Source: a virus. Taken from it: a stretch of 64,000 nt of DNA. This document shows positions 3,001-30,523 of this stretch, in pieces. The notes beneath the pieces are model-generated. The model made no database searches. It worked only from the letters and a program-made list of their open reading frames with translations, and was not told the DNA's origin. Numbering within the stretch: the stretch's first letter is position 1; each line of letters begins with the position of its first letter. The stretch spans positions 2,698 to 66,697 of the IMG/VR virus record IMGVR_UViG_3300030333_002409. One strand, written 5' to 3'. The translations under genes and the position numbers were made by a program.

Positions 3001-6000
3001 ATTCAACAGGTCTTTGATCTATACAAAGAAACTGATTCAGTTCTTTATGATCGTATGGAAAGATTGGCTTCGCGAATCCAAGGATTAGCTTTAGATAAGA
3101 GTGCTATAGAAGCTTTAGATCCAACAGTAGAAACGGAAAGGTTCATTCAAATTAAGCCTTTTGTTCATGAAGGAACAACCCACATACTTCGAGGACAAAA
3201 CGATCTCCCGCCGGGAGCAATCTTAAACGATACTAATCCCGCTTACCTTAGAACTCTCTCTGAGAAAAAAGAGGTTACTGATTTAATTCGAAGGGCTAAA
3301 GGAAGAATTGCTCGGCTGAAAGCTCTCGATCCTCGTTCTATTACTGCCGCAGAAACTACAGAACTTAGGGGATTAGAAACTGTCTTAGCAGATTCTATAA
3401 CTAAGAAGGCAGAGTTAGATAGAATTATTTCAGAAGGTGCTTATGGTGTGGATCAGTTCGGATTAACTCGCGAAAAGTTTGAAGGCGGACTTGATCGTAT
3501 TCGTAGGAATGCTGGAGAACAGGATCCTGATACCGGAGAGTGGACCTTCCATGTCCATAAGCTTGATGGGATTGAGGACCAGAAAGTTTATATGTCTTAT
3601 ATCCTGAGGAATACCTCTTTAGAATTAGGAGATAAGATTTCCGAAAACTTAGCCGGGCTTATTAGACATGGCTTTGGCAATGGATGGGGGAAGGATATAC
3701 TTGACCAAGTACAGAGAACTTTACTTTCCGGTACAAAGGCAGGCCATACTTTCTTATCTCCCAACGCATTCTTTGTTCTTCTATCTTCAATGGTTGAAGA
3801 CGGAGGGTTCACCTCTACCAACGTCTATCATAATAAGATGGGAGTTAAATCCTTAGCAAGTGTTAGAGTCCAAATGGATAGAATTCGATCTCGTATTAAG
3901 ACAGAAGGTGAAATGATTTGGGCAGAGTTTGGAGACAATGCCCCTCGTGTTTTAAAAGCAGCGAACCTAATGTCCAGAGGTCTTTGGGAGACTAACCAAA
4001 TACCCGGTATGTCTGAAGCTGAGATTCAAGCAGCAAAAGACTATAACGATACTTATCAGTTTGCATTAGATCTTCTTTACCAAAGAGCAAAGGATGTTGG
4101 GCTTGTTTCTCAAGATCCCTCTAGAACTCCTAGTACTCCGGTTGTATATAAGATTAAGAAGGAAGTAAATGTTACTCCCGGACAGCAGAAAACTTTCCTA
4201 GACAAAATGGCTCCGCTTATTGCTGATCAGTTAAGACTTGAAAACTCTGCTAGTAGGTTAGATCATATAACTTTATTCCTGTCAGACATCATACCTAACC
4301 ATCTTAAATTCGTGCCGGGTCGCCCGACCTTTGGATTAGAGTGGGATGCTATGATGGCGAACGATCCTGAGATTGGAAAGTATTTAGAAGACCAAGCTTT
4401 CTTAAATTACGTTAAAGAACAAGATCCAAGTTTAGAAACAGTGGACGCAGAAAGCCTTCTTACAGACGTAACGTTCGAAGAGCATAGACAACGATGGTAT
4501 GGTTCTGAAGATGGAACAATACTGCCCATTGTTGATAACGAGTCAAAGCTTCATCACAGAAAGAGAACTCTTTCCAATATCTTACACAGAGCTAGACATT
4601 CTAATGCTTCGATTGATACTGTATTTGAAAACGCTTCTACAGAAATCAAGCTAAACATTATGCATCGGTATAATGATGCGATTGATTCTCCTTCGGAACT
4701 CGTTCAAGAAAAGATTAACTGGACAAGGTTACATAGAAAGACCTTCGATAGTTACTTAGGATATAAGCCATTCTCTGAAGAATTCCAATCAGATTCCTTA
4801 AGCGATGCTAAGATGCCGATAACATCTCCCCAATCTTGGCATACCGCTACGTTTTATAGTAAAGCTATTTCCTCAGCCTTTGCTCCTTACGATTCAGAAT
4901 TCTATCCATCTGCTGAGCAAATCAATGCAGATGCGGAATTGGCGGGCTTGTTTGAGGTAGACTTATCGAAGATTCTTACTGGGTTTATTACTGGACTTGG
5001 AACCGATGCTTCGCAACGGCAGTTGTTAAAAACACTCACTAAGTCTAATATTTCCTTCCCCGGTTTATTAGACATGATAGGTAACATAGCAGAAAAGAGT
5101 ACTCTCTACGATAACGAAGGTAATCCGATTCAAGGTGGAGAGGGAAGTAATCTTCAAACTTCGTTGGATGTTCAGAGACGAAAGTACAATATTATGACGG
5201 GAATCGGAGTCAACTATGTACAGAGTGGAGACCGTATCATTGATGCCTTAGGAGAGCATGGGCAGGATATGATTCGTTTAGTTTACGGCTCTAATCTTGG
5301 TACGGCTATTACAATGGTCGAGGGCAATATCGTAGCAGCTAACCAATTAATACAAATGCATGAAATTGGAAACTTTGTTACAACTCCTCTTCGCTGGATG
5401 CAGGGACTGTCTAAAGCTAAGAGAATGGAAATGGCTGAGGAGATTGCATATCTTTTAAGCCATACCTCCCGAGACTTAGCAGGCGGAGACGATCCTTATT
5501 TGAATGAGGTTCTTACTGAAGACGAGAAAGCTTCCGGTCTTATGAGTAAGCTTCAAAGAGGACATATGGCTGTTTCTAAATATGCTGACCTCCAAGCCAG
5601 AGTTGCGGCTTCTCTTACTGGACGAAGATTTGTTCTAAGGAAAATTAAGAACGGAAGTCTTGAGGCCCTTATTGAAAAGATTGAGTCTACTCCTCAAGCT
5701 GACATGCCTAAGAGTCAGAATGAGTGGAAAGGCTTCCTTAGAGACATCAAGGGGTTAGGCGTAAGAAATCATCGGATAGTTCTTATGCTGAAGAAAGCTG
5801 ACTTATTGAGCCCAAGAGCATTGAAGGTCTTTAAGAGTCTTCTTACAGAGACCGGAGGATATGATGGGGCTTACTCTTTGATAGATATATCAACCCATAT
5901 TATGGGCGGAGGAACTACAGATGTATCTTCCGATACTGAAGAAATGTTATCAATCTTATCTGGCTTAGATAGATTTGATAAGGAGTTTACTAGCCAGTAC

Positions 6001-7077
6001 TTGATTGATCATAGAGTTATGGATTCGGCTACAGATCCAACAGCGGCAGCTAAGATGATTAACGCGTACAGAAACTTCCCATATTCCTTTGCTATACAGA
6101 GGATGATTAGAGACTCTAGTAATATGTCCATTCATGGATTCCTTGCTAAACAGCTCTACCATCTTATTTGGGATGCTCTCTATATGTCTATTCTTCAGGT
6201 TGCCGCAGGTAGAGATCTCTATGAAATCATAGAAGAGTGGAAAGAACGTCCTATTGGAACAGCGTTAAAATACATTGCTCGTTACCCCGGATTTGGTCCT
6301 TGGGGTGGATTCGCGGCACAGATTATGATTGGTCTTCTACAGACCGCCATCACTGGAAAGAATACTAATCTGGCACAAGTCGTGCCTATTCAGTTAGCCG
6401 CATGGACTTCTGTCTTGCAGAAACTAGCAAGTGGAGATATGTCTAGCAGTGAAGGAATTGGCGAAACCTTCGCTAATCTCTCGCGTCTTATCCCCGGATT
6501 TGGTGAAGCACTTCCGAGAGCTGGATACCAGCTTCTCAATAACGCATTACATGGGGATATCATGGGATCGAAAACTAGACCCGGACGGCCTAGGAGAATC
6601 GCAGGACCGGGAAGAGTTGCTGATCGAATGAGACAGGAGCATAGAGAAGCAGAGCCAAACCCAATGTTCTCGACCCCAGCTTCTAGAGATCTTATGAATA
6701 AGATTAAGAATAAGGGAGCTAGGGATCATTATTGGGACGGATCAGATACAGGTCTTCTCATGGGCATCCTTAACGAAATGTCCCGGAACAACATTAACGC
6801 AGTTCCCCTTATCAATCCAGTGACTGGAGAAGAGGCGGTGAAGGGATTCTTAGGCAAGAACAGAGGTCTAGGTTCTGAGTCTTCAATACCTCAAGAAGAG
6901 ACGCAAGTTCCACAAGAGCCTCAGACAGCTCCTGAGCCATCTCAGGTTCCAAGCACTCCTCAGGCATCCTCCACTTCTGAGACGGCTCCTGAGCCATCTC
7001 AGGCCCGTACAAAGGATCCTGTGGGGACGCTAGGTGGGGAGACTGTTAAGGAGGCTCCACCTGAGATATTCACTTAA
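1..7077 (+). CDS. C-terminal part of a giant internal virion/ejection protein (gp16-position) with a zincin HExxH motif; 5'-truncated by the window
   Basis: Frame +1 is open from base 1 (AAC TTC CAC...) to the stop at 7077. HELAH at 2653-2667 with a downstream NPEEF. Probably the same gene, or the same gene block, as the ORF that runs off the window at 58804-64000. Confidence 0.7.
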   Translation, partial: NFHDRGNLMLRKLYWERKKRNLEEAANRREEMIASGRYAYHGESLFPKESRGFSHMYDMDTLPFIPDGNFDFRTELLMDQHIGHSRLKARAKNSLIRFAKQNGLEHWLTEGRVADLWILMRVNTIKSDHAWRVAKGQGRYREVYENAEGMDKKRIEQMRRERDRRAYLDDFWSLFRTQHDAENFESRLGEMFPSGGIPATKPGLFNPDIYRKEKARLLKDGKLEAKEIETLARQEASKPEHNTYMKIWGRYNEPTNNLKALTMSLVPNEHIILVEGEAGGGIDLTELAELPLSVQGNDIFDIMNYQQANEDVRKTIDELVAEGLELTEAYEKTNPGQTLTLDKLSDPHKRAAFVLSKMESISNGKETDIPLKERLWEIRDADAMREVHRIAKDRGAFTNLDNFNLYVYADSEGSYRTIVTKEEILDPAIPRTQSPKAGGERRAGPLGGRATKVKGSLWRFRLTPEGAFLMMNGINNIRAQERLELATIINTTVGEETALSEKLTNRPFFNQRNEEAILADVLDELTREFSNGEVDGVRKVTHGYQGYRGQQLKVLDSMSYLFPSARRRAPGQRELHVEADLLPLRKVQRLLNKLGQTEEAANIQKLIDSDVEAAVALGILLRFEAEANKTIKNDIESGILPEELTNESITPEHLEIFVNLENTEAAYVKAVDLLQRINAISDRGVKDNPWYFRVRNRLESNTRIEIQADKTDPSRGMVSLQQPGIDTLAEDLGATTHADRIAVRKAVLQMVQHDHEFGIAEGTDYAWLTEVDPFEMSSDDGFRTHFNAQRGDARSDPHAMRIADQIESLRENGVLTEEQADIARLVISQAIIKNPAIIENLHLASDKSIAALGQKGSAHFKEGKYLITFDETIESTPDLIDVISHELAHIGVMKFIREGGMEWAQAEAILNTARGKEMMWEFVKTFHGGRMTTEARQLYDRYTENPEEFMVQYTSYVMQRDSLYNTGALRKIETKYRPEVGALKAVLRKIGGFYSKLLHDIQQVFDLYKETDSVLYDRMERLASRIQGLALDKSAIEALDPTVETERFIQIKPFVHEGTTHILRGQNDLPPGAILNDTNPAYLRTLSEKKEVTDLIRRAKGRIARLKALDPRSITAAETTELRGLETVLADSITKKAELDRIISEGAYGVDQFGLTREKFEGGLDRIRRNAGEQDPDTGEWTFHVHKLDGIEDQKVYMSYILRNTSLELGDKISENLAGLIRHGFGNGWGKDILDQVQRTLLSGTKAGHTFLSPNAFFVLLSSMVEDGGFTSTNVYHNKMGVKSLASVRVQMDRIRSRIKTEGEMIWAEFGDNAPRVLKAANLMSRGLWETNQIPGMSEAEIQAAKDYNDTYQFALDLLYQRAKDVGLVSQDPSRTPSTPVVYKIKKEVNVTPGQQKTFLDKMAPLIADQLRLENSASRLDHITLFLSDIIPNHLKFVPGRPTFGLEWDAMMANDPEIGKYLEDQAFLNYVKEQDPSLETVDAESLLTDVTFEEHRQRWYGSEDGTILPIVDNESKLHHRKRTLSNILHRARHSNASIDTVFENASTEIKLNIMHRYNDAIDSPSELVQEKINWTRLHRKTFDSYLGYKPFSEEFQSDSLSDAKMPITSPQSWHTATFYSKAISSAFAPYDSEFYPSAEQINADAELAGLFEVDLSKILTGFITGLGTDASQRQLLKTLTKSNISFPGLLDMIGNIAEKSTLYDNEGNPIQGGEGSNLQTSLDVQRRKYNIMTGIGVNYVQSGDRIIDALGEHGQDMIRLVYGSNLGTAITMVEGNIVAANQLIQMHEIGNFVTTPLRWMQGLSKAKRMEMAEEIAYLLSHTSRDLAGGDDPYLNEVLTEDEKASGLMSKLQRGHMAVSKYADLQARVAASLTGRRFVLRKIKNGSLEALIEKIESTPQADMPKSQNEWKGFLRDIKGLGVRNHRIVLMLKKADLLSPRALKVFKSLLTETGGYDGAYSLIDISTHIMGGGTTDVSSDTEEMLSILSGLDRFDKEFTSQYLIDHRVMDSATDPTAAAKMINAYRNFPYSFAIQRMIRDSSNMSIHGFLAKQLYHLIWDALYMSILQVAAGRDLYEIIEEWKERPIGTALKYIARYPGFGPWGGFAAQIMIGLLQTAITGKNTNLAQVVPIQLAAWTSVLQKLASGDMSSSEGIGETFANLSRLIPGFGEALPRAGYQLLNNALHGDIMGSKTRPGRPRRIAGPGRVADRMRQEHREAEPNPMFSTPASRDLMNKIKNKGARDHYWDGSDTGLLMGILNEMSRNNINAVPLINPVTGEEAVKGFLGKNRGLGSESSIPQEETQVPQEPQTAPEPSQVPSTPQASSTSETAPEPSQARTKDPVGTLGGETVKEAPPEIFT

Positions 7078-7079
7078 GT

Positions 7080-7096
7080 CCCTTATATCGGGTCTT
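7080..7096 (+). promoter_or_regulatory. Class B phage promoter variant (CCCTTATATCGGGTCTT), in a position like T7 phiOR
   Basis: Matches the motif at 19541, 24099 and 30461; lies right after the last structural gene. Confidence 0.65.
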
Positions 7097-7200
7097 AAGA
7101 TATAACTTAGGTTTAGCTTAGGATTAAAAGTATATTATATTATTATATAAGGTAAGTATACCTAGGTACTTAGGATAACCTAGGTGGTACTTCCTAATGA
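7097..7200. repeat. AT-rich tract with short CTTAGG/CCTAGG repeats, like T7 terminal short-repeat arrays
   Basis: Several cttagg/cctagg units between 7106 and 7184 in non-coding DNA. Confidence 0.5.
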
Positions 7201-7232
7201 ATTCGTCGGTGAACTGAGGGGGATAAGTACCT

Positions 7233-7550
7233 ATGGAATGTGAATACTGTAAAGAACGGGAAGTTAAGAAGCTTCGAGAAGACTTAATAAAATGCCAGAA
7301 GAGCTCAAAATCTAAAGACATGAAGCTGAAGGCACTGAACAAACGAGTATTCATATGTACTCTCGTCGGCGTAGCGATAGCTGCTATCTTCGGGAAGGAA
7401 GCTCTGGATGCTATCACGGAATGGCTGGGGTCTGTCAACAGCTTCCGCTCACAGGTCCTCAGTGACGCTACTGGGGTCTATCCCTCTCCGGGTACTCTTG
7501 GGGTATTTGCCGTCGCTGCATTGGTCTGTCGGCCTCGTAGGAGACGCTGA
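7233..7550 (+). CDS. Small membrane protein: CxxC, coiled coil, TM, and a C-terminal PEP-CTERM-like sorting signal
   Basis: MECEYC at the start; TM VFICTLVGVAIAAIFG; C-terminus VYPSPGTLGVFAVAALVCRPRRRR. Confidence 0.7.
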   Translation: MECEYCKEREVKKLREDLIKCQKSSKSKDMKLKALNKRVFICTLVGVAIAAIFGKEALDAITEWLGSVNSFRSQVLSDATGVYPSPGTLGVFAVAALVCRPRRRR

Positions 7551-7647
7551 GGAAATCGGTAGGGGGTCGCGAATCTCTAGAGGGGGTGGGTAGAATAAAA
7601 GTTTTCGAATCCCCCACGTACCCCCTCTATCAAAAGGATTTTTTAAG

Positions 7648-8010
7648 ATGGACATCAAGTCACACCGTATTGCTGGACGTAGCGCTCACGATCTGTTCTA
7701 CTACACTTCCGTGGTTATTGAAACAGACACGGCTCGCTGTCCTTGGGTTTTCTCTAGGGAAGATGACTCCCACGCCATCTACCAGATGGATCCAGAGACC
7801 GTCGTAACAAAACGGAAGATTGATTGCACCTCACGGCTTAACGGTAAGTCCTACTGTTATTCCTATGTTCATCGTGTGGAACACAGTCCCATCACGGGTG
7901 AACAGATGTACATCGTCCATGAAACATTCGTGTTTCATGATGGTGATACGATACAGGAACACAAAGGCTACGTTAGCTTCACTGAGTGCATGAGTCAGAT
8001 CCCAGTCTGA
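7648..8010 (+). CDS. Hypothetical early protein
   Basis: 120-aa ORF with AAAGGA upstream; first gene of the GC-richer early block. Confidence 0.6.
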   Translation: MDIKSHRIAGRSAHDLFYYTSVVIETDTARCPWVFSREDDSHAIYQMDPETVVTKRKIDCTSRLNGKSYCYSYVHRVEHSPITGEQMYIVHETFVFHDGDTIQEHKGYVSFTECMSQIPV

Positions 8011-8014
8011 CATG

Positions 8015-8091
8015 GCCGAAACCTCATGCCGCCCTAACGGGCGGCATCGTGGTTTGTCGTGGATGAACTCACGGCACTGATGAGGCAGTTC
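8015..8091 (+). ncRNA. Type II hammerhead ribozyme
   Basis: GCC-GAAA (8015-8021); stem III ACC...GGT capped by ATGCCGCCC-TAAC-GGGCGGCAT; cleavage triplet GUU (8052-8054); stem I TGTCGTG/CACGGCA; CTGATGA (8077-8083); GGC closing stem II; loop GAACT pairs with 3' AGTTC (8087-8091) as a pseudoknot. Confidence 0.85.
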
Positions 8092-8112
8092 CCTTAACTA
8101 AGGAGGTTCACT

Positions 8113-8292
8113 ATGAACCTAGAACAAAGAGTAGAAGCTCTCGAACAAAAGCTTGACGCGTTCTTCGCCAACGAGTACCCACGAGTCCGTAACATTGTGG
8201 ACAAACGTGAGGAGGAACGCAAGGAAGAACCCTTGGTCATTCTCGGTCAAGGTGAGTACAGGATGAAGATCTACCCCTCTGACATTAAATGA
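8113..8292 (+). CDS. Hypothetical early protein (59 aa, MNLEQRVEALEQKLD...)
   Basis: Strong SD TAAGGAGGT; coiled-coil-like N-terminus; below the ORF-track cutoff and translated by hand. Confidence 0.75.
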   Translation: MNLEQRVEALEQKLDAFFANEYPRVRNIVDKREEERKEEPLVILGQGEYRMKIYPSDIK

Positions 8293-8344
8293 TGGTAGTC
8301 CCATCAAGCTATGAGCACCAGCTTAAAGGGCTTAGGAGTTTGAT

Positions 8345-8569
8345 ATGGAGAAAACCCGTATCCACTTCTGCGTCTCGTGCGGCCCTGTCGATGACGAGCT
8401 CTACCAAGAGTACGTCATGGCAGGCGAGCTCATCGAGTACCAGCATGGAGATAGTGACACCGGTCACCGTCTTCAGGCTGAGCTCGATGGGCGGTACGAG
8501 GTCGTAAAGATTCAGTGCCGTCAGTGTGCCTACCTAGAGGCGCACGGGTCTGATCATTACGACTCGTAG
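8345..8569 (+). CDS. Hypothetical Zn-ribbon-like protein (two CxxC)
   Basis: SD AGGAG; CVSC...CRQC. Confidence 0.65.
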   Translation: MEKTRIHFCVSCGPVDDELYQEYVMAGELIEYQHGDSDTGHRLQAELDGRYEVVKIQCRQCAYLEAHGSDHYDS

Positions 8570-8859
8570 CCTAACGAGACGCTACAACGTCCCTCTGACG
8601 AGCCTTCGCGGTCGAGAGGGGCCTCATACCTATGCATTCCACGGAGTGCATACGTATGAGGCTTGTTGTCTCTATACCCTACGACTACAGCCACGGAGCC
8701 AAGGAAAGGCTACCGGCTAGTAGTGTGTGCAAGAGCGGAGAAGGATCTCGCTCCGAGACCATACACACGGTTAGGAGCCTCTACTCTGGACAGGCGGACT
8801 TGAGGATGGGCGGTCCGCTTTGTCTTTCTTTTCCTGTTCCCATCGAATGGAGTTTCCTC

Positions 8860-9054
8860 ATGCCTAAGTACAATATCCAGATTCAAGTCGCCGGTCACAT
8901 CATCCTCGATGTGGTCGAGGCTCAGGATCCGCCTCATGCTGTCCGTATCCTCAACGAGATGGGCATCCGGGACGGTGAGTACGAGCTGCCATCCTCTGTG
9001 GTGGCTGAGGCTGAGGCTATGGTGCGTGAGTCTAACCGGCTCACTCATGGCTAA
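8860..9054 (+). CDS. Hypothetical early protein (MPKYNIQ...)
   Basis: GGAG before ATG 8860; the upstream part of the ORF-track frame is structured non-coding sequence. Confidence 0.6.
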   Translation: MPKYNIQIQVAGHIILDVVEAQDPPHAVRILNEMGIRDGEYELPSSVVAEAEAMVRESNRLTHG

Positions 9055-9187
9055 TGCCTGAGGGTGTGTACACCTACGGTGGGTAGGTGTACCATCCCCC
9101 ATGCATTGGTTGAAGGTCATATGTTTGACCGCCGGTACATGAGGTCCGTCCCACCGTGGGACACATTCTCTTGAAAGGAGAATTATT

Positions 9188-9676
9188 ATGAAGAAGCAGA
9201 TTATCTCTCAGCGTGGTTTCATCCTCCACAATCGTCGCTCGACGATGGTGACGGTGAACACCAGCGGCAGGTCCAACGGGATCTACACCGTCATCCGGTC
9301 CACGACCGGTACGGTGGAGAAACTGGAGGCTGCGGAGATGGTATCGCTCGTCAACGAACTGACCGCTGAGGGGTTCTCCCTCCGGTTCTGTTTCGGTGTG
9401 CGAGTCGAGGCCCGTGTGCGTCTGACGTTGAGCCATGCAGATGGCTGCGTCACCGCATCGATCAAGGGCGGCATTACGCTGTTCGAAGGTCACACTGGCT
9501 TCGAGATCGACCACTCCACCAGTGGGTCCTGTGCTCAGGAGGTCAAGGATGCTACCTACAGCTGGTTTAACGACCGGTTCGGTGGCAAGCCGCGTCTCCT
9601 GAGTGAGGATGGCGAGGCTCTTGACTTCGGGACCGAGGCTAAGGCTTCGGCTCCGCGTCAGCGTCTCCCATTCTGA
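9188..9676 (+). CDS. Hypothetical early protein
   Basis: SD AAAGGAG; high-GC3 codon pattern. Confidence 0.7.
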   Translation: MKKQIISQRGFILHNRRSTMVTVNTSGRSNGIYTVIRSTTGTVEKLEAAEMVSLVNELTAEGFSLRFCFGVRVEARVRLTLSHADGCVTASIKGGITLFEGHTGFEIDHSTSGSCAQEVKDATYSWFNDRFGGKPRLLSEDGEALDFGTEAKASAPRQRLPF

Positions 9677-10048
9677 TCCCCTTCTTCGCTCGTCGCAGCG
9701 AGCCTAAACAGGCCTTAAGCTGCGAGCGGCCTGCCCTTCGGGGCAGGTGTGGCTTACCCGCTTCCTTTGGGAGCGGTGTGTCCGCTCTGTGAGGGCGGAC
9801 TGGACGTTCCCGCCTCCGTCCTATGGCGGAGGACCGCACGATGGCGGCGGTCTGTAGGAGCCACGAGGATCCCGTCTAAGGCCATCCCTCCCTAAGGAGG
9901 GGTACGAGACCCCTTAGGGGCTTGGGAGCTCTCTATGGAGCTCTCCGGGCCTCTCAAGGCACGCTAGTGTGCGTGTGCGTGGGGGTCTGCTTTTTTCATC
10001 GTCCCTATGGGGACACAGCAGCCACCATAGGTGGCGTAAGGAGTTCAC

Positions 10049-10570
10049 ATGAACGATAGACAATACCGAGGATCTCTCTGCGGAGACCACCTCCACCCTG
10101 ATGAGGTGGAGTCGATGACGCAGACTTGGACCGGTAAGTTCCGGTATAGCGAGGATATCTCCATAAAGTGGGAGATTCTCCACTGGACTTCTCCGGATAA
10201 CCGTAGGCCAGTGCCTACTCCAAGGTTTCCGGATCCGAGCGATGACCTCATTGGAGGTCGTGATGGCTGGAACATCTATCTTTATCTTCCCGCAGATTTC
10301 ATCTGTGATTATGATAATGATGACTGGTCGAAGGTGTCGGACTACGACTTCGGTGAGCTGGTTCCCTACTCCTTTGGAGAGGTTACTTGGGCGACCCGTG
10401 TCACTGAGTTCGGAACCAAGTACCTCAAGTTGGGCAATGATTACAATCATTCGTTCAACGATGCCTACTATTCGTTCGAGGAAATCTTCAAGGATCTGTC
10501 CAAGATTCTTGCTGAGTTCCGCCCTCCTTCGGAGCCCTTTGAACTTCCAAAGGGTTTCAATGAGGATTGA
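10049..10570 (+). CDS. Hypothetical acidic/aromatic early protein
   Basis: SD TAAGGAG; followed by hairpin CCCTCCC-TGAAA-GGGAGGG. Confidence 0.7.
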   Translation: MNDRQYRGSLCGDHLHPDEVESMTQTWTGKFRYSEDISIKWEILHWTSPDNRRPVPTPRFPDPSDDLIGGRDGWNIYLYLPADFICDYDNDDWSKVSDYDFGELVPYSFGEVTWATRVTEFGTKYLKLGNDYNHSFNDAYYSFEEIFKDLSKILAEFRPPSEPFELPKGFNED

Positions 10571-10675
10571 ATCGGGCTCCCTCCCTGAAAGGGGAGGGTG
10601 TCTATTTGACCACTAACTCTTGGGTGGCTTGGTCAACCACCGAACCGTATGGTGCTAAGCACCAAGGAGGAACAA

Positions 10676-12778
10676 ATGAAATCATTTGATCTTCAACTCA
10701 AGCGTGAGGAGGCTCTTGTTGAGCCGACTCGTACTCGCTCCTTCCGTAACGCTCAGCGTGCCGGTGGAGACGGCGGCTATGCCGTCGCAGTCGTGGATGA
10801 AGTCGGTCGCTCGCTGGCTGCTGCTGTAAAGGCAGAGGTCTGTGAGGATTGGGCTGAGACCCAGCCTTGGTTCCCTATGTGGAAGGTGCTGTCACCTGAC
10901 ATTGTGGGTATCGAGATGATCGCTGCCATCCTCGATGTTGAAATCTTGGGTGAGTCTGCCCTCGAACAGGTCGTTCTCGACAGGTTCGTGGAAAGGCTCC
11001 GCATTACCCTTGCTTTCCTCAGGGCAAAGCAGGAGAATGCAGCTCTCTTCGAGGAGCACACTCAGCGCCTGCGTAAGCGTGGTGCTAAGTGGGCAAGCCG
11101 TGACTCTCAGGTCCGGTTCCTTGAGGTGACCGACACGGACTTGTCCGTTGTCGAACAAGATTTGCTCCGCCGGGTAGGGATGGTTGTGTTGGGGATCGCC
11201 GTTGATTCTGGACTCATCCAGAAGGATAAGGAGAACTCCAAGTTCTACTTGTCTCTGACCCGCTCATGGCGGCGGCGCATTCACCGGAACATGGAAGGGC
11301 GTGCCTTAGCACGACCCATTCGTCGACCGATGGTGCATCGTCCCAAGGACTGGAACGAGGCAGGTGTGGGTGGAGGATACCTGTCCAAATGGATGGCGTA
11401 CAACCTCGTTGATGGCGATAGCCTCGCCTCACCTATGGTGGTGGAGATGGCTAATCGGATGCAGTCCGTAGGGTACTGCGTCAATGAGCAGGTCCTGAAG
11501 CTCGCCTTGCGTGGGCTGAAGGGTTACCGCTCATCCAAAGATGCGGTTGATGGCAAGGTCCTTCGGGCAGAAGCCTCTCTCAAGGAGGCGGAAGCCTTGC
11601 TCAACACCACCTTCTACTTCTGTGTCAAGTGTGACTACCGTGGTCGTGTGTACTACGTCAGTGACATCCTCAACCCTCAGGGTTGGGACCTTGACCGAGG
11701 GCTTCTCCGCTATGCGGAGGGGTGCGAACGCACGCCTGAGGCGTTGCGTTGGCTGAAGATTCACACTGCCAACAAGTTTGGCTTTGACAAGGAATCCTTC
11801 GAGGATCGTGTCAAGTGGTGTGATGAGCGATTCAACGAAATGCAGGCGGATCCCGTTGCCTTCTGGAAGGGCAACGACCCCGGCGACAAGGACCGTTGGT
11901 CATCACTGGCTGCGGTACTCGACCTCGTTGGGGATGGTCCCATCACTACTCCGATTCAGGTCGACGCGACCTGCTCGGGACTTCAGCACTTGTCAGCAAT
12001 GGCAGGTGATGAAGCAGTCGCCGTTGCGACTAATGTGATGCCGTCTGAAGACGGGATGCGTTGCGATCCTTACGTTGCCACCGCTGAAGCCTGCGGTCGG
12101 AAGCGATCTGAGGTCAAGCAAGCCGTGATGTGCATCCCCTATGGCATTAGCCTCTCGGGGATGATCGATCAGTTGATCGAAGAGGGCATTGAGCCCGACC
12201 GCCTCAAGGCTACAGTCTTGGCTGAAGACATCTGGGCCAGCTGTGAGGAGCTGATGAGTGGAGTACTCTCCATTATGAAGTTCCTCAAGGCTGGAGGACG
12301 AGCGTTGGCGGAAGCCGGTGTTCGTCCTCAGTGGACAACCCCTTCGGGGTTTGTCGCTGTGATGCCAACCGCTATCCTGAAGCGGCGCATCAGCATCATG
12401 GATGCCAAAGGCAACATGGTGAAGACCCAGTTTGGTATTGAAGCAGCCGATGAGGTTGACCCCAACCAAGTTGTCCGTGGCATGGCTCCGAACTTCGTTC
12501 ATAGCTATGATGCGGCACTGGTTGCCCTTGTGGTATCCCGTTGGGATGGACCAGTTACCTGCATCCATGACTGCTTCGCTACCACTGCGGACCAGATGGA
12601 CGCACTGCGAAATCTGATCCACGAGTGCTTCGTGGAACTGTATGGAAGCGATGCGATCCAGAAGGTACGCAATGAGTTTGTCCACTCAGCTCCGCTGGGG
12701 GTCAGCGTACCGCTGCCGCCAGTCCGGCGAGAGATGGACCTCAACCGCTCGCTCGAAAGCGAGTACATGTACTCCTGA
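10676..12778 (+). CDS. T7-type single-subunit RNA polymerase 1 (compact, about 700 aa)
   Basis: DYRGRVY, motif A PIQVDATCSGLQH, motif B RSEVKQAVMCIPYG, APNFVHSYDA, motif C IHDCF, C-terminal YMYS; SD AAGGAGG before ATG 10676. Confidence 0.95.
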   Translation: MKSFDLQLKREEALVEPTRTRSFRNAQRAGGDGGYAVAVVDEVGRSLAAAVKAEVCEDWAETQPWFPMWKVLSPDIVGIEMIAAILDVEILGESALEQVVLDRFVERLRITLAFLRAKQENAALFEEHTQRLRKRGAKWASRDSQVRFLEVTDTDLSVVEQDLLRRVGMVVLGIAVDSGLIQKDKENSKFYLSLTRSWRRRIHRNMEGRALARPIRRPMVHRPKDWNEAGVGGGYLSKWMAYNLVDGDSLASPMVVEMANRMQSVGYCVNEQVLKLALRGLKGYRSSKDAVDGKVLRAEASLKEAEALLNTTFYFCVKCDYRGRVYYVSDILNPQGWDLDRGLLRYAEGCERTPEALRWLKIHTANKFGFDKESFEDRVKWCDERFNEMQADPVAFWKGNDPGDKDRWSSLAAVLDLVGDGPITTPIQVDATCSGLQHLSAMAGDEAVAVATNVMPSEDGMRCDPYVATAEACGRKRSEVKQAVMCIPYGISLSGMIDQLIEEGIEPDRLKATVLAEDIWASCEELMSGVLSIMKFLKAGGRALAEAGVRPQWTTPSGFVAVMPTAILKRRISIMDAKGNMVKTQFGIEAADEVDPNQVVRGMAPNFVHSYDAALVALVVSRWDGPVTCIHDCFATTADQMDALRNLIHECFVELYGSDAIQKVRNEFVHSAPLGVSVPLPPVRREMDLNRSLESEYMYS

Positions 12779-12848
12779 TTGAACGGGGTGCGTTACGGGG
12801 CTCCTCCCTAGGGGGGAGCCTCGATACCTGTGCCGTTCAACCAACAAA

Positions 12849-12872
12849 GGTGGGCAAAGCCCACCAATAGAA
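12849..12872 (+). promoter_or_regulatory. Class A hairpin promoter candidate 1 (GGTGGGC-AAA-GCCCACC-AATAGAA)
   Basis: One of three copies directly downstream of RNAP1; 3' part resembles the SP6 initiation region CACTATAGAA. Confidence 0.65.
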
Positions 12873-12992
12873 AGACGTATGTGTCTTTCTAAGGGAAGGG
12901 GCATAGGGTACGGGGATACCTTCATCTCATGATGAGGAGCCCCCGCCCTACTTCGGCGGACGGTGGGATGCAAAACATCTCGGCGGACCGGA

Positions 12993-13016
12993 GGTGACCA
13001 AAGGTCACCAATAGAA
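12993..13016 (+). promoter_or_regulatory. Class A hairpin promoter candidate 2 (GGTGACC-AAA-GGTCACC-AATAGAA)
   Basis: Same architecture with two compensatory base-pair changes in the stem. Confidence 0.65.
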
Positions 13017-13160
13017 GAGGGGCAGTGTTCGACTACTTACCTGTGGATTGCAGGGTCAACACTTAGATAATCCACAGGCTACCCCAGACGGCAGAGCACG
13101 GGTTTGTTGGAGGCTGGGTGCGGCGGACGTAGACCTGCCAAGAGTAACAAAGGTCTAGCG

Positions 13161-13184
13161 GGTGGGCAGAGCCCACCAATAGAA
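13161..13184 (+). promoter_or_regulatory. Class A hairpin promoter candidate 3 (GGTGGGC-AGA-GCCCACC-AATAGAA)
   Basis: Same architecture with loop variant AGA. Confidence 0.65.
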
Positions 13185-13470
13185 GAACTCGTAGCAGTGA
13201 CGGTTGTACAACCTAGGGACTGTAATGGAGTTTGCTCCACCTTTAGCGGGGTGGACTGAACGACGCCTCGGCAGAGGTACAGGTCCTGCACATGGACCCG
13301 TGTTAACTTATTCCCGATGTGCCGGGTTAGCTGATATCTGTAGGTAGGAAATCAGCTGGACAATAGGAGACGCCTCCCAGTGGGGAACTGGGTCATCACT
13401 CCCCAACTTTCTGCATCCAAGGAATATCAGACTTGACTCTGGTATCCCTTAGGTACAGAACCTAGAAAGG

Positions 13471-13683
13471 ATGTGCATTATGCGTATCAAAGTAGAAATG
13501 CTGGCTCCTTGGTCAGTCGCTGTCTATGTGGACGGTGAGATTTCAGATTGTTTCGACTGTGCGAACGATGCGGTCGAGCATATCCGTGAACTAACGGATG
13601 ACCCCGCCAACGTGAGCGTCACGTTTGACGAGGGATTCCAATGGCAATGTGAGAAAGCCGCAAGGCGTGGCTGGAAGGCTTGA
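13471..13683 (+). CDS. Hypothetical protein
   Basis: GAAAGGA upstream; first of a tightly packed run of small ORFs. Confidence 0.6.
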   Translation: MCIMRIKVEMLAPWSVAVYVDGEISDCFDCANDAVEHIRELTDDPANVSVTFDEGFQWQCEKAARRGWKA

Positions 13684-13685
13684 CT

Positions 13686-13820
13686 ATGTTTAGTGAAGAA
13701 GATATCGTGTACCTTGAGTACTGTGGTTTGAACGAGTACGAAGATTTCCTGAAGGAGTGCCAGCACTGGTTGCTGGAGAAGGAACTTCCTAATGATGATG
13801 GAGAGTTTGAAGATGAGTGA
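13686..13820 (+). CDS. Very acidic 44-aa protein (MFSEEDIVYLEY...)
   Basis: Translated by hand; abuts neighbouring ORFs. Confidence 0.55.
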   Translation: MFSEEDIVYLEYCGLNEYEDFLKECQHWLLEKELPNDDGEFEDE

Positions 13821-13953
13821 GTATAAAGATTCCGTAGTGAAGGGCATTGCCCTTAATCCTTGCGTGAAGCCTGAGACTTCGAAGGAAGCGAAGGCTGAGT
13901 GCAAGAAGCGTGGCATCAAACTTACTAAGCCGAAGGTGAAAGCCAATGCTTAA
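13813..13953 (+). CDS. Small basic 46-aa protein
   Basis: Translated by hand; GGAG upstream, overlaps both neighbours by 8 nt. Confidence 0.5.
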   Translation: MSEYKDSVVKGIALNPCVKPETSKEAKAECKKRGIKLTKPKVKANA

Positions 13954-17030: not shown

Positions 17031-18023
17031 ATGTCACACGAAATGTATGAGAACGATAGTGCTATGTACTACAAAGAGAAGGCATGGCACGGGCTGGGTA
17101 CTGTGGTTGAGAAAGCATACAACCCACGCCAAGCTTTGGAGATGGCAGGTCTTGACTGGACTGTTGAGCAGTCCGATTACTTGCAGGTCCACCTCCCCGA
17201 TGGGGACAGCGTGATTGACCACAAGCATCGTGCTAATGTGCGATCAGATACTCGAGACATTCTTGGGTGGGTAGGTACACAGTATCAGCCGCTTCAGAAC
17301 CACGAGCTAGCAGAAATTGCTTACAGCCTTAACGGAGAAGACTCTGTTGTTGAGTCTTGCGGTTCACTGTTTAATGGTGGACAAGTATACTTCTTGATTC
17401 GAGGTGAGTCCTTCGATACAGGCAACGGCAACGACACAGTGGAGCGATACATGCTGCTGACTAACGGGCATGACGGCAAGCTCCGTGCTACTGCTAAGCC
17501 TACGTCTGTCCGTGTGGTGTGTAATAACACGCTGACGATGGCACTGAACCAGCAAGGGCAGAGCTTTGGCTTTACCCACAACGGAGACATGGCTGTTAAG
17601 ATTCAGGAAGCGAAGGAAGCTATGGCTATGTTCCGTGAGACTGGTCAGTTCTTCAAGGATGCTGTTAGCGTACTTAACTACCGACAGGTCACGACCGAAA
17701 GCGTTCAGAAGTTCTGGACTGAGATCTATCAGGATCTTGTTGAAGAAATTCCTATGAATCCTGAGAACAAAGAAGAAGAGAGAGCTAAGAAGAAGGCAAA
17801 GGTTACCCTGTCTACATGGGCAGAAACCTTTGACAACGAACGCCAAGTTGCTGGGACTAATATGTGGAATGCATTCAATGCGGTAACAAATTGGATGGAC
17901 CACAAGACTCGGTACAACGGCACGCCTGAGAAGAAAGCTGAGAATCGTTTGCACTCTAACCTTTGGGGTAAGAGTGAGACGAAGAAGAAGCAAGTATTCA
18001 AGGCAGCACTGGCAGCGTCATGA
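17031..18023 (+). CDS. DUF932 / TIGR03299-like phage-plasmid protein
   Basis: MSHE..., AWHGLG, QPLQN, NGHDG, RVVCNNTL. Confidence 0.85.
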   Translation: MSHEMYENDSAMYYKEKAWHGLGTVVEKAYNPRQALEMAGLDWTVEQSDYLQVHLPDGDSVIDHKHRANVRSDTRDILGWVGTQYQPLQNHELAEIAYSLNGEDSVVESCGSLFNGGQVYFLIRGESFDTGNGNDTVERYMLLTNGHDGKLRATAKPTSVRVVCNNTLTMALNQQGQSFGFTHNGDMAVKIQEAKEAMAMFRETGQFFKDAVSVLNYRQVTTESVQKFWTEIYQDLVEEIPMNPENKEEERAKKKAKVTLSTWAETFDNERQVAGTNMWNAFNAVTNWMDHKTRYNGTPEKKAENRLHSNLWGKSETKKKQVFKAALAAS

Positions 18024-18544
18024 GTAGGCTCATTGATGAGCTTATGAATGTACACGCCGAGCTCGCAAGCAGGGAGAACTTTAGCTCCCTGCTTGTGGGC
18101 CAGTGTGCTTTAGTAGAAAAGGATTACATATCTTCTATTGCGGCTGCGTTACTTACTCTTGGTGGTAGGCATGGGCCTACTGTACAAACAGTTAAGTTTC
18201 TATCTAAGATAGGAGACTTTGATCCTACAGTGTACTATAAACATGGTCTAGTTATCCCCGGATGGGGCTCAGCTTTTCATAAAGGCGAGCCTGACCCGCA
18301 TTTCGATACACTAGATGGCTTCTTGTTCGAAGATAATAACTCTCTTTGGGCAAAGATTAAGGAGTATACTAATAAGATTCACGATACAGGTAAGATACTG
18401 TACCCTAACGCTGCTTGCTATACCGCAGCTGTTGCTATAACAGAAGGGATACCAGCAGAAGTTTCTCCCTACCTACTCATTAAAGGTAGGCTAGATGTGT
18501 GGACAGATCTTTACCTAAAGAATAAAGGAACCAGACTTCCGTAG
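18020..18544 (+). CDS. Truncated citrate synthase / citryl-CoA lyase-like protein
   Basis: IAAALLTLGGRHGP, IPGWGS...DP, YPNAA align with the HG, GFGH, DPR and PNVD motifs. Confidence 0.65.
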   Translation: MSRLIDELMNVHAELASRENFSSLLVGQCALVEKDYISSIAAALLTLGGRHGPTVQTVKFLSKIGDFDPTVYYKHGLVIPGWGSAFHKGEPDPHFDTLDGFLFEDNNSLWAKIKEYTNKIHDTGKILYPNAACYTAAVAITEGIPAEVSPYLLIKGRLDVWTDLYLKNKGTRLP

Positions 18545-18608
18545 CTCAGTTGGATAGAGCAACGGTCTTCTAAACCGTAGGTCGCTGGTTCGAGTCCAGC
18601 CGGAAGTG
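18535..18608 (+). tRNA. trnR: tRNA-Arg(TCT)
   Basis: Acceptor ACTTCCG/CGGAAGT; D arm AGCTCAGTTGGATAGAGC; anticodon loop CTTCTAA; GGTTCGAGTCC; no encoded CCA. Confidence 0.95.
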
Positions 18609-18893: not shown

Positions 18894-18967
18894 GGCTCCG
18901 TAGCCCAACAGGCAGAGGCAGTGGACTTAAAATCCATACAGTGTGGGTTCGAATCCCACCGGAGCTA
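18894..18967 (+). tRNA. trnL: tRNA-Leu(TAA), short variable arm
   Basis: GGCTCCG/CGGAGCT; anticodon loop CTTAAAA; GGTTCGAATCC. Confidence 0.93.
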
Positions 18968-19100: not shown

Positions 19101-19173
19101 GGGCTGGTAGCTCAGCGGTCAGAGCACACGACTCATAATCGTTCGGTCGCCGGTTCAAATCCGGCCCAGCCTA
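19101..19173 (+). tRNA. tRNA with CAT anticodon, probably Ile2 (lysidine type)
   Basis: GGGCTGG/CCAGCCT; CACGA-CTCATAA-TCGTT arm resembling bacterial tRNA-Ile2; lacks the initiator GGG/CCC pairs. Confidence 0.9.
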
Positions 19174-19518: not shown

Positions 19519-19540
19519 TAGTACAGGAGTTATGCCAACG

Positions 19541-19572
19541 CCCTTATATCGGGTCTATGGATGCAATCCATA
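19541..19572 (+). promoter_or_regulatory. Class B promoter with overlapping palindrome (CCCTTATATCGGGTC-TATGGAT-GCA-ATCCATA)
   Basis: Repeated motif immediately upstream of RNAP2. Confidence 0.75.
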
Positions 19573-19602
19573 CACCTCAGAATGAATAACAAGGAGATGA
19601 TT

Positions 19603-22050
19603 ATGTACAAATGGAATAGTATTCCCCAGCAAGAACGTGATGATAGAAAAAATCTTCAGGTTGTTTGGGAAGAAGATCTCCTTTCTATGGGCATTAATAA
19701 ATATTGGAGTGATTTTAATAGAGCTCCAGATGAGAGTGAACCTGAACAACAACTGTTAGATGCTAGTGTTATACACTTACAGCCTCTCTTCCAAGTTTGG
19801 ATTGACGAGGCTGCTAAGAGACCTAGGACTCCGAGCTGGTTGATTCCTCTACTCAGTATTGGGTCATTCAAAGCAGCAGATATTGTTATTAGAAATGTTC
19901 TTAGATTAACACTAGAAGGATCTGCTTCTGGTGGGGTGGCTTCTTCCTTTAGGAAGGAACCAAGAGCACAAACTATTGCTTCTTGTATTGCAGATGATGT
20001 TATTAATATTGTCTCGTATCAAGCAAGCAAAGAACAATTTAGAGATGATTGGAAAAGACAGTCTAAGTTTACTAAGAACTGGTCACCCAAGAGATGCTTA
20101 GCCTTTACTAAAAAGTTAGGAAACATTCCTCAATTACCTAGGAAAGGAAAGCAAGACTTCGGACATGCTATGCTTAGGATAGCACTGCTATCTGATATCT
20201 TAGTGGCGGACAAGGTTAGAATAAAACCAAACTCACGGTGCAAAACAAAGGAGCATATATATGTCCGATTAAATGATAAGATTTTGGAGGAGCTGCACAC
20301 TAAGCACCACCTTCTAGAACTCTCTTCTCTCATATATCGACCAATGATTGCTCCTCCTTTGGACCACCTTCCAGAAGAACCCGGAGGTAATTACTTACGG
20401 TGGATTAGAAAACCTACAGTTAAACGATACGTAAACAATAGTAGGGTCGAAGAGGATAAGATCACACAGCACTGCTCAGAGCTAGTACTAAAGGGTCTGA
20501 ACTCTCTTCAACAAACTGAGTGGTCAATCAATGAACCGGTCCTCCGAGTAATGGAGGACTTCTTTGAAGGCAACACAGCTTTAGCTAATCTCCCGACCTA
20601 CGACTTTGAAGGATTCTCCATGAGGAAGTATCCTCAAGAGGGTAGTAAGGTTGAGCAGGGTCGGTGGATGGCTGAGCGTGAAGAGAAGTGGGGTAAATGG
20701 TATAGGGATGAGCAAAAGCGGGGGCGTATGTTAGTTAGAATGCATCTAGCTAATCAACTTATCCCGCATGGATGGTTCTACCACCCGTACAGCCTAGACT
20801 TTAGAGGAAGAGCATATACAGCATGCGAACTTCTATCCCCACAAGGTGCGGACTTTGATCGAGGGCTTCTGTTGTTTGCGAATGCTAAGAAGCAAACCCC
20901 AAGGGGATTGTATTGGCTTAAGGTTCACACGGCTAATCTCTTTGATCAAGATAAACTTCCTTATGATGAAAGGGTGGCATGGGTTGATGAGAATATGCCC
21001 ATGCTTATGCGTATTGCTGAAAACCCTTATGATAATAAGGAGTGGGTTTCCGATAAAGAAAAGAAGAACCCTTCCTTCCAGAGATTGGCAGCGTGCTTTG
21101 AGCTAGCCAGAAAGGATGGGCTTACTCAACTTCCTGTCCAACTCGATGGGGCTTGTAACGGATCCCAACACTGGTCAGTTATTATGGGGGATGAGACTGT
21201 AGCGGAACTTACTAATGTTATTGGAAGCCACTCTCCTCAAGATCTCTATGGATTTGTAGCTCAGCAAACCACTGACATCATCGCTAAGAACGAAGATGAT
21301 CTTGATTGGTTTGTTACATTTATGGATCACTGGCAAGAAGGCATTGAACGTGCTGTAGTCAAGAGACCTACAATGTGTGATGCTTATGGCCTAACCTTCT
21401 ACGGTATTCAGAAGTATCTTAAATTGGAGGGACACCTTGATTGGGTTCCTCGTGATGATAGAGGTGGTGCTGTAGTCGAGATGGCAAGAGCTGTCCAGCA
21501 GGGACTAGGCATGACTCTAGATATGCCTAACAAAGGAAAGGATTGGTTAAAGGAAGTAGCTTCAGTGGCCAACCTATCAGAGAAACATTTAATCTGGACT
21601 ACTCCCTCAGGATTTATTGTCGAACATGTGTATCAGCCTATTAGACAACGCCGGTCTTACACCGAGTTGTTTAATCAAAAGAAATTTGAACTGGTCTTTG
21701 CAAACTATTACGATGGTGTTAACGCAAACGGACAGGAGCTTGGGATTGCTCCGAACTTTATTCACAGTTTAGATGCTGCCCATATGTTCTTAACTCTTAT
21801 TAGATTACTACAAAAGAACGTTGATTCATTTTCCATGATTCATGACTCCTATGGTGTACATGCACCTGATGTGGACATCATGAATGAATGTTTACGTCAA
21901 GCGTTCATTGAAATACATAAGGAGAATGTACTTGAAACGTTCAAGCAGGATGTCGAGGAGTACCTCGGCATCGTCGCTCCGCCAATCCCCAATCCAGCCG
22001 GAGGACTTGACCCCGCCTGTGTCCTCGACTCCGAATACTTCTTTAGTTAA
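19603..22050 (+). CDS. T7-type single-subunit RNA polymerase 2 (about 815 aa)
   Basis: RPMIAPP, DFRGRAY, PVQLDGACNGSQH, RAVVKRPTMCDAYG, APNFIHSLDAAH, IHDSYG, C-terminal SEYFFS; SD AAGGAG before ATG 19603. Confidence 0.97.
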   Translation: MYKWNSIPQQERDDRKNLQVVWEEDLLSMGINKYWSDFNRAPDESEPEQQLLDASVIHLQPLFQVWIDEAAKRPRTPSWLIPLLSIGSFKAADIVIRNVLRLTLEGSASGGVASSFRKEPRAQTIASCIADDVINIVSYQASKEQFRDDWKRQSKFTKNWSPKRCLAFTKKLGNIPQLPRKGKQDFGHAMLRIALLSDILVADKVRIKPNSRCKTKEHIYVRLNDKILEELHTKHHLLELSSLIYRPMIAPPLDHLPEEPGGNYLRWIRKPTVKRYVNNSRVEEDKITQHCSELVLKGLNSLQQTEWSINEPVLRVMEDFFEGNTALANLPTYDFEGFSMRKYPQEGSKVEQGRWMAEREEKWGKWYRDEQKRGRMLVRMHLANQLIPHGWFYHPYSLDFRGRAYTACELLSPQGADFDRGLLLFANAKKQTPRGLYWLKVHTANLFDQDKLPYDERVAWVDENMPMLMRIAENPYDNKEWVSDKEKKNPSFQRLAACFELARKDGLTQLPVQLDGACNGSQHWSVIMGDETVAELTNVIGSHSPQDLYGFVAQQTTDIIAKNEDDLDWFVTFMDHWQEGIERAVVKRPTMCDAYGLTFYGIQKYLKLEGHLDWVPRDDRGGAVVEMARAVQQGLGMTLDMPNKGKDWLKEVASVANLSEKHLIWTTPSGFIVEHVYQPIRQRRSYTELFNQKKFELVFANYYDGVNANGQELGIAPNFIHSLDAAHMFLTLIRLLQKNVDSFSMIHDSYGVHAPDVDIMNECLRQAFIEIHKENVLETFKQDVEEYLGIVAPPIPNPAGGLDPACVLDSEYFFS

Positions 22051-24101: not shown

Positions 24102-24127
24102 TATCGGGTCTATGGATACAATCCATA
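24099..24127 (+). promoter_or_regulatory. Class B promoter with overlapping palindrome (TAATATCGGGTC-TATGGAT-ACA-ATCCATA)
   Basis: Repeated motif upstream of the SSB/replication operon. Confidence 0.75.
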
Positions 24128-30480: not shown

Positions 30481-30523
30481 AGAATACCCCGAGAATATAC
30501 AAGAGGATAAGACAACCGAGGAG

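Follow-up and report, generated by a model that had tools for sequence, protein, structure and literature searches.

Palindromic, SP6-like promoter candidates behind a compact T7-type RNA polymerase gene of a phage genome, and their possible recognition as DNA hairpins

We analysed a 64,000-nucleotide stretch of viral DNA, called the window below, which comprises bases 2698–66697 of one 66,697-bp virus contig (IMG/VR record IMGVR_UViG_3300030333_002409). The subject of this report is a set of three repeated, palindromic elements, termed P1, P2 and P3 (class A), which sit in a 690-nt non-coding stretch 3' of the stop codon (12778) of a gene for a small single-subunit RNA polymerase (RNAP), termed RNAP1. 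The palindromes occur in two versions, which we refer to as the GGGC and the GACC flavour. The gene and the three elements are:

10649–12778, plus strand: RNAP1, compact T7-type single-subunit RNA polymerase, 709 amino acids from the first ATG; Pfam RNA_pol 8e-48
12849–12872, plus strand: P1, putative class A promoter, GGTGGGC-AAA-GCCCACC-AATAGAA; palindrome 12849–12865, GGGC flavour, loop AAA
12993–13016, plus strand: P2, putative class A promoter, GGTGACC-AAA-GGTCACC-AATAGAA; palindrome 12993–13009, GACC flavour, loop AAA, followed by AATAGAAGAG
13161–13184, plus strand: P3, putative class A promoter, GGTGGGC-AGA-GCCCACC-AATAGAA; palindrome 13161–13177, GGGC flavour, loop AGA, followed by AATAGAAGAAC

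An earlier, sequence-only reading of this DNA had pointed out the three plus-strand strings, and a direct read of the sequence reproduced them exactly. The perfect 7-bp stem with a 3-nt loop in all three copies, the start-to-start spacing of 144 and 168 nt from P1 to P2 to P3 and the position right behind the compact polymerase gene (P1 lies approximately 70 nt past the RNAP1 stop) were likewise as that reading had described them. P2 differs from P1 and P3 in two base pairs, with both arms altered. Compared with a related contig (L005, see below), the window has a 31-nt insertion 5' of P2, which opens with a truncated GGTGGGA arm, and CGGCGGAC is duplicated.

The 22-nt degenerate pattern GTGNNCANAGNNCACCANNAGA has three matches in the window, compared to a mean of 0.00 in 100 shuffled sequences. 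With up to one mismatch allowed, GGTGNNCNNNGNNCACC also matched only at P1–P3; in this case 0.92 matches are expected and 4 of 100 shuffles reach three. The exact box CACCAATAGAA is found in the window only at P1, P2 and P3, and a search of the window for the palindrome yielded no copy besides these. As single-stranded DNA, each element is predicted to form a hairpin on either strand, with energies from -6.7 to -8.1 kcal/mol and z-scores from -4.6 to -6.3.

Two other assignments were ruled out. P1 is not a minus-strand terminator, since there are no minus-strand genes, and P2 and P3 are without a T-run. Host sigma-70 promoters were predicted at 27 places by a scan, no enrichment over the 21.4 expected, and none of these places coincides with P1–P3.

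Close relatives of RNAP1 are few. We found eight close protein clusters with identities of 100–48% (74%, 54% and 48% for P0006, P0007 and P0008), and the next matches are generic T7-like enzymes with at most 35% identity. The database protein that corresponds to RNAP1 itself (P0001) has 700 amino acids, implying a start at position 10676. DNA from behind the polymerase gene was available from one IMG/VR contig (L002, which is the same as L009; whole record G001, 87% identity) and from five metagenome contigs, namely L003, L004, L005, L007 and L006, with RNAP1 identities of 87%, 87%, 79%, 81% and 54%. A further contig, L008, is 99.9% identical to L006, and L004 stops behind its P1, a copy with the same sequence as the P1 of L003. 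In total this gave 19 distinct sites from six genomes: three each in the window, L003, L005, L007 and L009, and four in L006.

The first element starts 71–83 nt past the RNAP1 stop in every relative, over the range of RNAP1 identities from 87% to 54%. In L006 the spacings are 56, 527 and 982 nt, and its fourth site (P4) is located 1.65 kb downstream. The whole 51-kb relative G001 contains exactly three copies, and a scan of all of IMG/VR with the two exact flavour patterns gave matches only in G001. A looser, degenerate scan of viral contigs with GGTGNNCNNNGNNCACCANNAGA produced at least 119 listed single matches, among which 6 are palindromic (about 7 by chance). A degenerate scan of genome contigs listed 120 single matches, 32 of them palindromic compared to 30 expected, with at most one copy per locus. 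These genome-contig matches are background and give no lead to a host or a prophage.

An alignment of the 19 sites defines the anatomy of the element. The inner arm bases G-T-G..C and G..C-A-C are invariant, that is, four inner pairs are fixed. Also without variation are the C closing the 3' arm, the first and third loop positions (both A), the A that succeeds the palindrome and, another four to five bases on, an AG. The loop is thus A-N-A, with A at its centre in 12 sites, G in 6 and T in one. Two stem pairs are variable and take two states only, G-C plus G-C (10 sites) or A-T plus C-G (9 sites); no site is mixed. All six inner pairs are of the Watson-Crick type in 114 of 114 cells, with zero G-T. 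Counting all seven pairs, 97.7% of 133 stem cells pair, a value that none of 500 shuffles equals, and sliding the partner columns by one to three positions lowers it to 22–50%. The outermost, seventh pair is broken in 3 of the 19 sites, each time via the 5' base, while its 3' partner is constant. In coordinates relative to the predicted start, position -5 is always C, and its partner at -21 can be G, C, A or T.

The sequence-only reading had interpreted the difference between P2 and its neighbours as a compensatory change and had named covariation in related genomes as a check. Both points hold in part. Pairing is indeed kept in P2, and the six inner pairs are complementary at all 19 sites; however, the seventh pair is not conserved, and the stems fall into two discrete flavours, so that the switch within the window resembles the replacement of a cassette. 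It may perhaps go back to one true compensatory origin. Taken together, the self-complementarity of the arms appears to be under selection. Because -5 is invariant, -21 is free and pairing is strict, it looks as if sequence is read in the 3' arm and the start box, and as if the 5' arm can be anything that pairs with the 3' arm.

The surroundings of the elements are those of promoters. In an alignment of the spacer, P1–P3 form conserved islands, and the rest is poorly conserved except for a stem-loop and a non-coding RNA. All sizeable open reading frames (ORFs) are on the plus strand, and the elements are co-oriented with them. In L009 and L003, P3 is followed within approximately 20 nt by AAGGAGGTG and the ATG of a homologue of the gene starting at 13471, and in L006, P4 is placed where one ORF ends, with AGAAGGAG and an ATG at 9787 coming next. 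The sequence-only reading had proposed an SP6-like initiation region; in fact, ATAGAAGAG is found in identical form in two SP6 promoters, those at 8416 and 14291. Its view that the sites behave like promoters is supported by the conserved islands, the co-orientation, the placement after RNAP1 and the Shine-Dalgarno (SD) sequence with ATG, or conserved RNA, downstream.

The likeness to promoters of the T7/SP6 type goes further. In both cases, blocks of approximately 23–27 bp are repeated between genes in the orientation of these genes, the positions -4 to -1 are A/T-rich, the start resembles TATAG with a purine at +1 (AATAGAAGAG here), and one or more polymerases with the T7 fold and a specificity-loop segment are encoded in the same genome. 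The architecture is also that of SP6, where the first promoter is found 107 nt past the polymerase gene, compared to approximately 70 nt here. The upstream half is different. An A/T-rich segment at -17 to -13 (ATTTA or AATTA in SP6) is missing, and a GC-rich arm, GTGGGC or GTGACC, takes its place. This half forms a GC-rich palindrome whose 5' arm covaries with -9 and -10, a property that is needless for reading as a duplex. Inspection of 11 SP6 promoters, by eye only and with no scan, revealed no such dyad.

On these grounds the elements are very probably promoters of a phage polymerase. Iterons of a replication origin, or another site of DNA metabolism such as replication or packaging that is not primarily a promoter, would also account for three repeats in a 690-nt non-coding stretch directly 3' of a polymerase gene, and in T7 the primary origin and two promoters are located at the corresponding place. 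We nevertheless regard such an origin as highly improbable. The spacing of the repeats varies (144/168 nt here, 56/527/982 nt in L006), one copy is 1.65 kb away and stands directly before an SD sequence and an ATG, there is no A/T-rich tract (GC 51–57%), and the start box is identical to SP6 promoters. An origin primed by transcription would need promoters anyway.

The following features surround the three sites:

12781–12838, plus strand: long, imperfect stem-loop between the RNAP1 stop and P1, no U-tract, conserved in 6 genomes
13017–13135, plus strand: structured non-coding RNA after P2, best-conserved stretch of the spacer, 5 genomes
Counterparts of this RNA: L009 8359–8480, L003 5664–5830, L005 6096–6250, L007 1234–1400
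13185–13470, plus strand: 286-nt leader from P3 to the first middle gene, near-identical in L005, absent from L009 and L003
13471–13683, plus strand: first gene past the class A sites, 70 amino acids; a homologous ORF stands directly after P3 in L009

For the stem-loop at 12781–12838, RNAalifold predicted 23 pairs from the six genomes, 8 of them with compensatory changes and several of the G-U type. It may be a processing site, a stabiliser of 3' ends or a terminator of early transcripts, and its shape is like that of an RNase III site. The RNA at 13017–13135 is predicted to form 30 pairs, of which 6 are double-changed, and its 10–11-bp stem includes G-U as well as 2 compensatory pairs. It is apparently transcribed from P2, and a search of the spacer, including this RNA, against Rfam gave no family match. 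The 286-nt leader is read as an inserted element, since only the window and L005 have it and L009 and L003 are without it. No Pfam or PHROG match was obtained for the product of the gene at 13471–13683. The sequence after P1 is variable; its predicted minimum-free-energy fold opens, in L009, L003 and L007, with a stem-loop that begins at the G of the AG.

Only two metatranscriptomes, the marine X1 and X2, contain small shares of the genome, and the parts they do not cover are uninformative. An X1 contig of 214 nt (Logan contigs, depth 3.8) aligns to 12869–13079 with 0 mismatches and with three unaligned letters in front. Its first aligned base, 12869, is the A of the invariant AG of P1, and the contig spans the P2 hairpin. 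Such a contig cannot show a 5' end and may derive from DNA; as evidence for a transcript that starts at P1 it is a weak hint. Transcription from P1 is predicted to begin at A12869 or G12870. X2 covers 13576–13835 with 4 differences and hence comes from a relative.

Selection on the palindrome might instead act on RNA, with the hairpin in read-through transcripts serving as a signal for processing, pausing, termination or insulation that overlaps the promoters. With the promoters in tandem, transcripts from P1 would include P2 and P3; conserved RNA structure abounds in the region, and T7 has units of a promoter and an RNase III site. On the other hand, RNA stems next to the sites in the same genomes accept G-U, and the class A stems never do (none in 133 cells), which favours a constraint at the level of DNA. 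The stem also lacks the length that RNase III requires and is not followed by a U-tract. The overlap with -21 to -5 is exact at 19 of 19 sites, P4 of L006 in its gene-dense stretch included, and the exact RNA-library contig continues through the P2 hairpin. An RNA-level signal is therefore quite unlikely in our view.

To judge which polymerase reads the sites, we compared RNAP1 with known enzymes. It matches T7 RNAP with an E-value of 1.3e-30 and N4 RNAPII with 3.9e-11. Aligned with T7 RNAP, it shows motifs A, B and C as well as a specificity-loop segment of full length; approximately 45 residues of the fingers are missing between T7 residues 566 and 622. An AlphaFold2 (AF2) model built from a 79-sequence alignment has a mean confidence (pLDDT) of 90.3, the specificity loop excepted, and its best matches in the PDB are elongation complexes of T7 RNAP (TMq 0.82). 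The alignment and the model agree with the T7-type nature that had been claimed for RNAP1. Longer proteins with an RNAP1-like domain, searched for in the range of 1,242–3,545 amino acids, were mitochondrial enzymes and one metagenomic protein of 1,572 amino acids.

The GC content is 53–60% from about 8 to 13.5 kb, a segment with small ORFs, ribozymes, RNAP1 and the class A sites, and 41–46% elsewhere. This suggests that the module at approximately 8000–13500 was separately acquired or is differently constrained. RNAP1 and class A sites occur together in six of six genomes, within one GC-rich module. Judged from position, composition and co-occurrence, RNAP1 is probably the enzyme that reads the class A promoters. 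Among the early ORFs of this segment, at 9688–9754 (plus strand), there is a match to the Pistol ribozyme with 65.8 bits (Rfam gathering score 34.5, E-value 2.7e-10), and an exact RNA-library contig covers 9702–9864. A match to the type II hammerhead at 8014–8094 (plus strand) is below the Rfam gathering score, with 30.8 compared to 37 bits and an E-value of 0.008.

The larger setting bears on the second polymerase and on a further promoter-like family, class B:

19561–22050, plus strand: RNAP2, single-subunit RNA polymerase, 829 amino acids; RNA_pol 1.9e-84
7074–7100, 19535–19561, 24090–24116 and 30455–30481, plus strand: class B promoter-like family, an A/T-rich segment followed by ATCGGGTCTATRGA
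53522–58807, plus strand: ORF of 1,761 amino acids, contiguous with the terminase operon and overlapping the giant ORF; no Pfam or PHROG match
58804–64000 and on through genome positions 1–9774 (the latter being window position 7077), plus strand: giant ORF of approximately 4,950 amino acids, crossing the contig junction

The first 98 bases of the contig recur at its end, inside the giant ORF, so that the map is circular or permuted with a length of approximately 66.6 kb. T7-like genes are present for a primase-helicase, a DNA polymerase, portal, scaffold, capsid, nozzle, fibres and terminase. By gene content, not phylogeny, the architecture matches the marine Autographiviridae subgroup AG-10.1. 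Passages of PMC12361551 on this subgroup describe a typical RNAP of approximately 800 amino acids upstream of the replication genes, a smaller extra RNAP further upstream among small genes of unknown function, and a giant gene encoding 3,274–5,566 amino acids. All of these features are found here, with RNAPs of 829 and 709 amino acids, the ORF of approximately 4,950 amino acids and a large T7-like genome. The combination of two polymerases and a giant gene is thus already known from AG-10.1. The word 'promoter' never occurs in the main text of PMC12361551 (Commun Biol 2025; supplements aside), and in its passages on AG-10.1 'hairpin' is not a topic.

Class B resembles canonical promoters of the T7 type. 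One copy, at 19535, extends into the ATG of RNAP2, and the weaker copy at 7074 directly follows the giant ORF. G001 has four class B copies in matching order along the reversed contig. Since a canonical motif, class B, goes well with a canonical polymerase, RNAP2, we infer that RNAP2 would read class B and RNAP1 class A. A query of viral contigs with RNAP2 found no relative. Just upstream of RNAP2 there are three tRNA genes (18535–18608, 18894–18967 and 19101–19173, plus strand; Rfam 62–72.5 bits); metatranscriptome matches in this region are tRNAs of other organisms with 4–8 differences. The middle genes include one for a DUF932 protein (17031–18023, plus strand, 6.1e-38). It is followed by an ORF of 174 amino acids (18020–18544, plus strand) with a weak match to the C-terminal part of citrate synthase (4.5e-07), barely above the cut-off.

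The giant ORF brings the phage N4 to mind, and the hairpins might be the earliest promoters of a polymerase delivered with the virion, either the late protein of approximately 4,950 amino acids or a packaged RNAP. Three tandem hairpin promoters together with a giant late protein do resemble N4. According to parts of PMC12361551, moreover, four giant proteins of the phage group carry Pfam RNA_pol, some homologous giant genes carry RNA_pol, RNase_H or SMC_N domains, and an extra RNAP gene is situated downstream of the giant gene. In the present genome, however, the giant ORF gave no match in Pfam (RNA_pol included), PHROGs or PDB sequence searches. The sites are 5.7 kb into the region after the giant gene rather than at any recognisable end of the genome, and RNAP1 and the sites are inherited together in one GC-rich module. 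A virion-delivered reader is very unlikely by this evidence.

The resemblance to N4 concerns the sites themselves as well. The N4 promoters P1 and P2 (NC_008720) read GTTGC-TTC-GCAAC-ttat-G and GAAGC-TCC-GCTTC-tttt-G; from the base of the stem, four A/T positions lead to a G, as in GCCCACC-AATA-G here. Both systems have three tandem, co-oriented promoters with an inverted repeat of 5–7 bp and a 3-nt loop, and both polymerases are members of the T7 superfamily. Here and, according to the relevant sections of PMC4496689, in N4, stem positions that vary remain paired, and those that are conserved are read as sequence. The same sections state that in the N4 virion RNAP (vRNAP) a β-intercalating hairpin marks the -5/-4 junction, that the specificity loop recognises the stem through its major groove and that the enzyme contacts a template-strand G-N-A loop with a central purine. 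The two systems also differ. The non-template loops are TTC and TCC in N4, and AAA, AGA or ATA here; the stem here has 6–7 obligate pairs and is joined to an SP6-like start box. The N4 sites are at the left genome end and those described here follow an internal polymerase gene. Finally, the N4 reader is a virion protein of 3,500 amino acids, whereas the likely reader here is a T7-fold enzyme of approximately 700 amino acids. Promoters of the N4 type are located at the genome end that is first to enter, and they depend for their activity on extrusion of the hairpin, with negative supercoiling and SSB, or on a single-stranded template.

In the full-text literature, hairpin, cruciform or palindromic promoters of phage polymerases were found only for N4-like phages. 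In PMC11880802, a study of the specificity of T7-like promoters on a genome-wide scale, a term search gave no occurrence of 'hairpin', 'palindrom' or 'inverted repeat'. An element like class A, with an SP6-type start box and a self-complementary upstream part of N4-like geometry, was not found in the searched literature.

Intrastrand pairing is favoured because a monomeric reader of duplex DNA gives no reason for the complementarity of -20 to -15 with -11 to -6. Operators, too, are typically shaped like this perfect 17-bp dyad around a 3-bp centre, and the class A sites could be ordinary, duplex-read promoters whose palindrome doubles as a binding site for a dimeric DNA-binding switch protein of the phage. 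Class B promoters overlap a 7+3+7 palindrome at 19557 and at 24112 as well, across the putative start, and a phage-wide use of dyads is conceivable; most early proteins are without a family assignment and could hide a regulator. Such a protein, however, gives no reason for flavours that are never mixed: independent reading of the half-sites should allow mixed ones, and there are none among the 19 sites. The conservation is asymmetric, with -5 fixed and -21 free. As nothing else is conserved 5' of the start box, the palindrome is the binding region of the promoter itself. Searches for helix-turn-helix or other DNA-binding families with Pfam on 20 small early and middle ORFs, and with PHROGs on 10, were negative, a weak argument. 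Overall, an operator is unlikely.

Reading of class A as a DNA hairpin by the polymerase, as in N4, is possible at somewhat less than even odds. We assign a rough probability of 0.38 to the complete proposal, in which a compact, non-virion T7-fold RNAP of approximately 700 amino acids reads extruded or single-stranded hairpins and RNAP2 then uses duplex promoters, in a cascade. Several observations speak against it. RNAP1 resembles T7 RNAP, which is a reader of duplex DNA, and phage DNA inside the cell is perhaps insufficiently supercoiled to extrude a 7-bp cruciform. The 50 listed fold matches of RNAP1 do not include N4 vRNAP. On the template strand the loop reads T-N-T, its centre being free, and not the purine-type G-N-A of N4, and the longer stem sets the centre of the loop at approximately -13, compared to -11 in N4. 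Only two stem flavours are known among the 19 sites, and the differences in flavour between the window and L005 at P2 and P3 probably reflect cassette exchange. Because the flavours resemble exchanged cassettes, the 19 sites are not independent and maybe represent one compensatory event. The link to RNAP1 is one of position, shared composition and co-occurrence only. The RNA evidence consists of the one low-depth Logan contig. The predicted fold of the P1 transcript has no initial stem-loop in the window, L005 and L006, and it is no better than that of many shuffles (42 of 200 for L005, 15 of 200 for L009).

Based on the alignment and the comparison with N4 and SP6 we propose the following mechanism for the class A promoters. 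Each promoter would span approximately 27 bp, with the 17-nt palindrome at -21 to -5 as the polymerase-binding element. In the palindrome, which has an A-N-A loop, six Watson-Crick pairs would be obligate and the seventh pair not, and the polymerase may bind this element as an intrastrand DNA hairpin in the way of N4 vRNAP. The 4-nt A/T spacer AATA would serve as the melting region, and rightward transcription would start at the invariant AG. P1 would yield a short RNA beginning with a hairpin, P2 the conserved structured RNA, and P3 the mRNA of the middle genes, which would read on toward the tRNAs and RNAP2. In the infection cycle, the early genes and RNAP1 would be expressed first. Class A would then give the two small RNAs and the middle genes from 13.5 to 19.5 kb into RNAP2, and in the last step class B (ATCGGGTCTATRGA) would be used by RNAP2 to transcribe the replication and late genes.

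Should the palindrome be no more than an operator or RNA signal, what remains of the finding is a new promoter consensus for an uncultured phage group. If the proposal is true, the class A sites would be a second case of hairpin-promoter recognition in the T7 superfamily, outside the Schitoviridae. The use of hairpins by a small T7-fold enzyme would mean that this kind of recognition is older, or easier to evolve, than thought, and it would have implications for the way in which promoter specificity arises in single-subunit polymerases, the mitochondrial one among them. RNAP1 would then be a compact, orthogonal polymerase with a 27-nt promoter, possibly for single-stranded DNA templates. For the globally distributed marine phages with two polymerases, the proposal would provide a testable wiring diagram.

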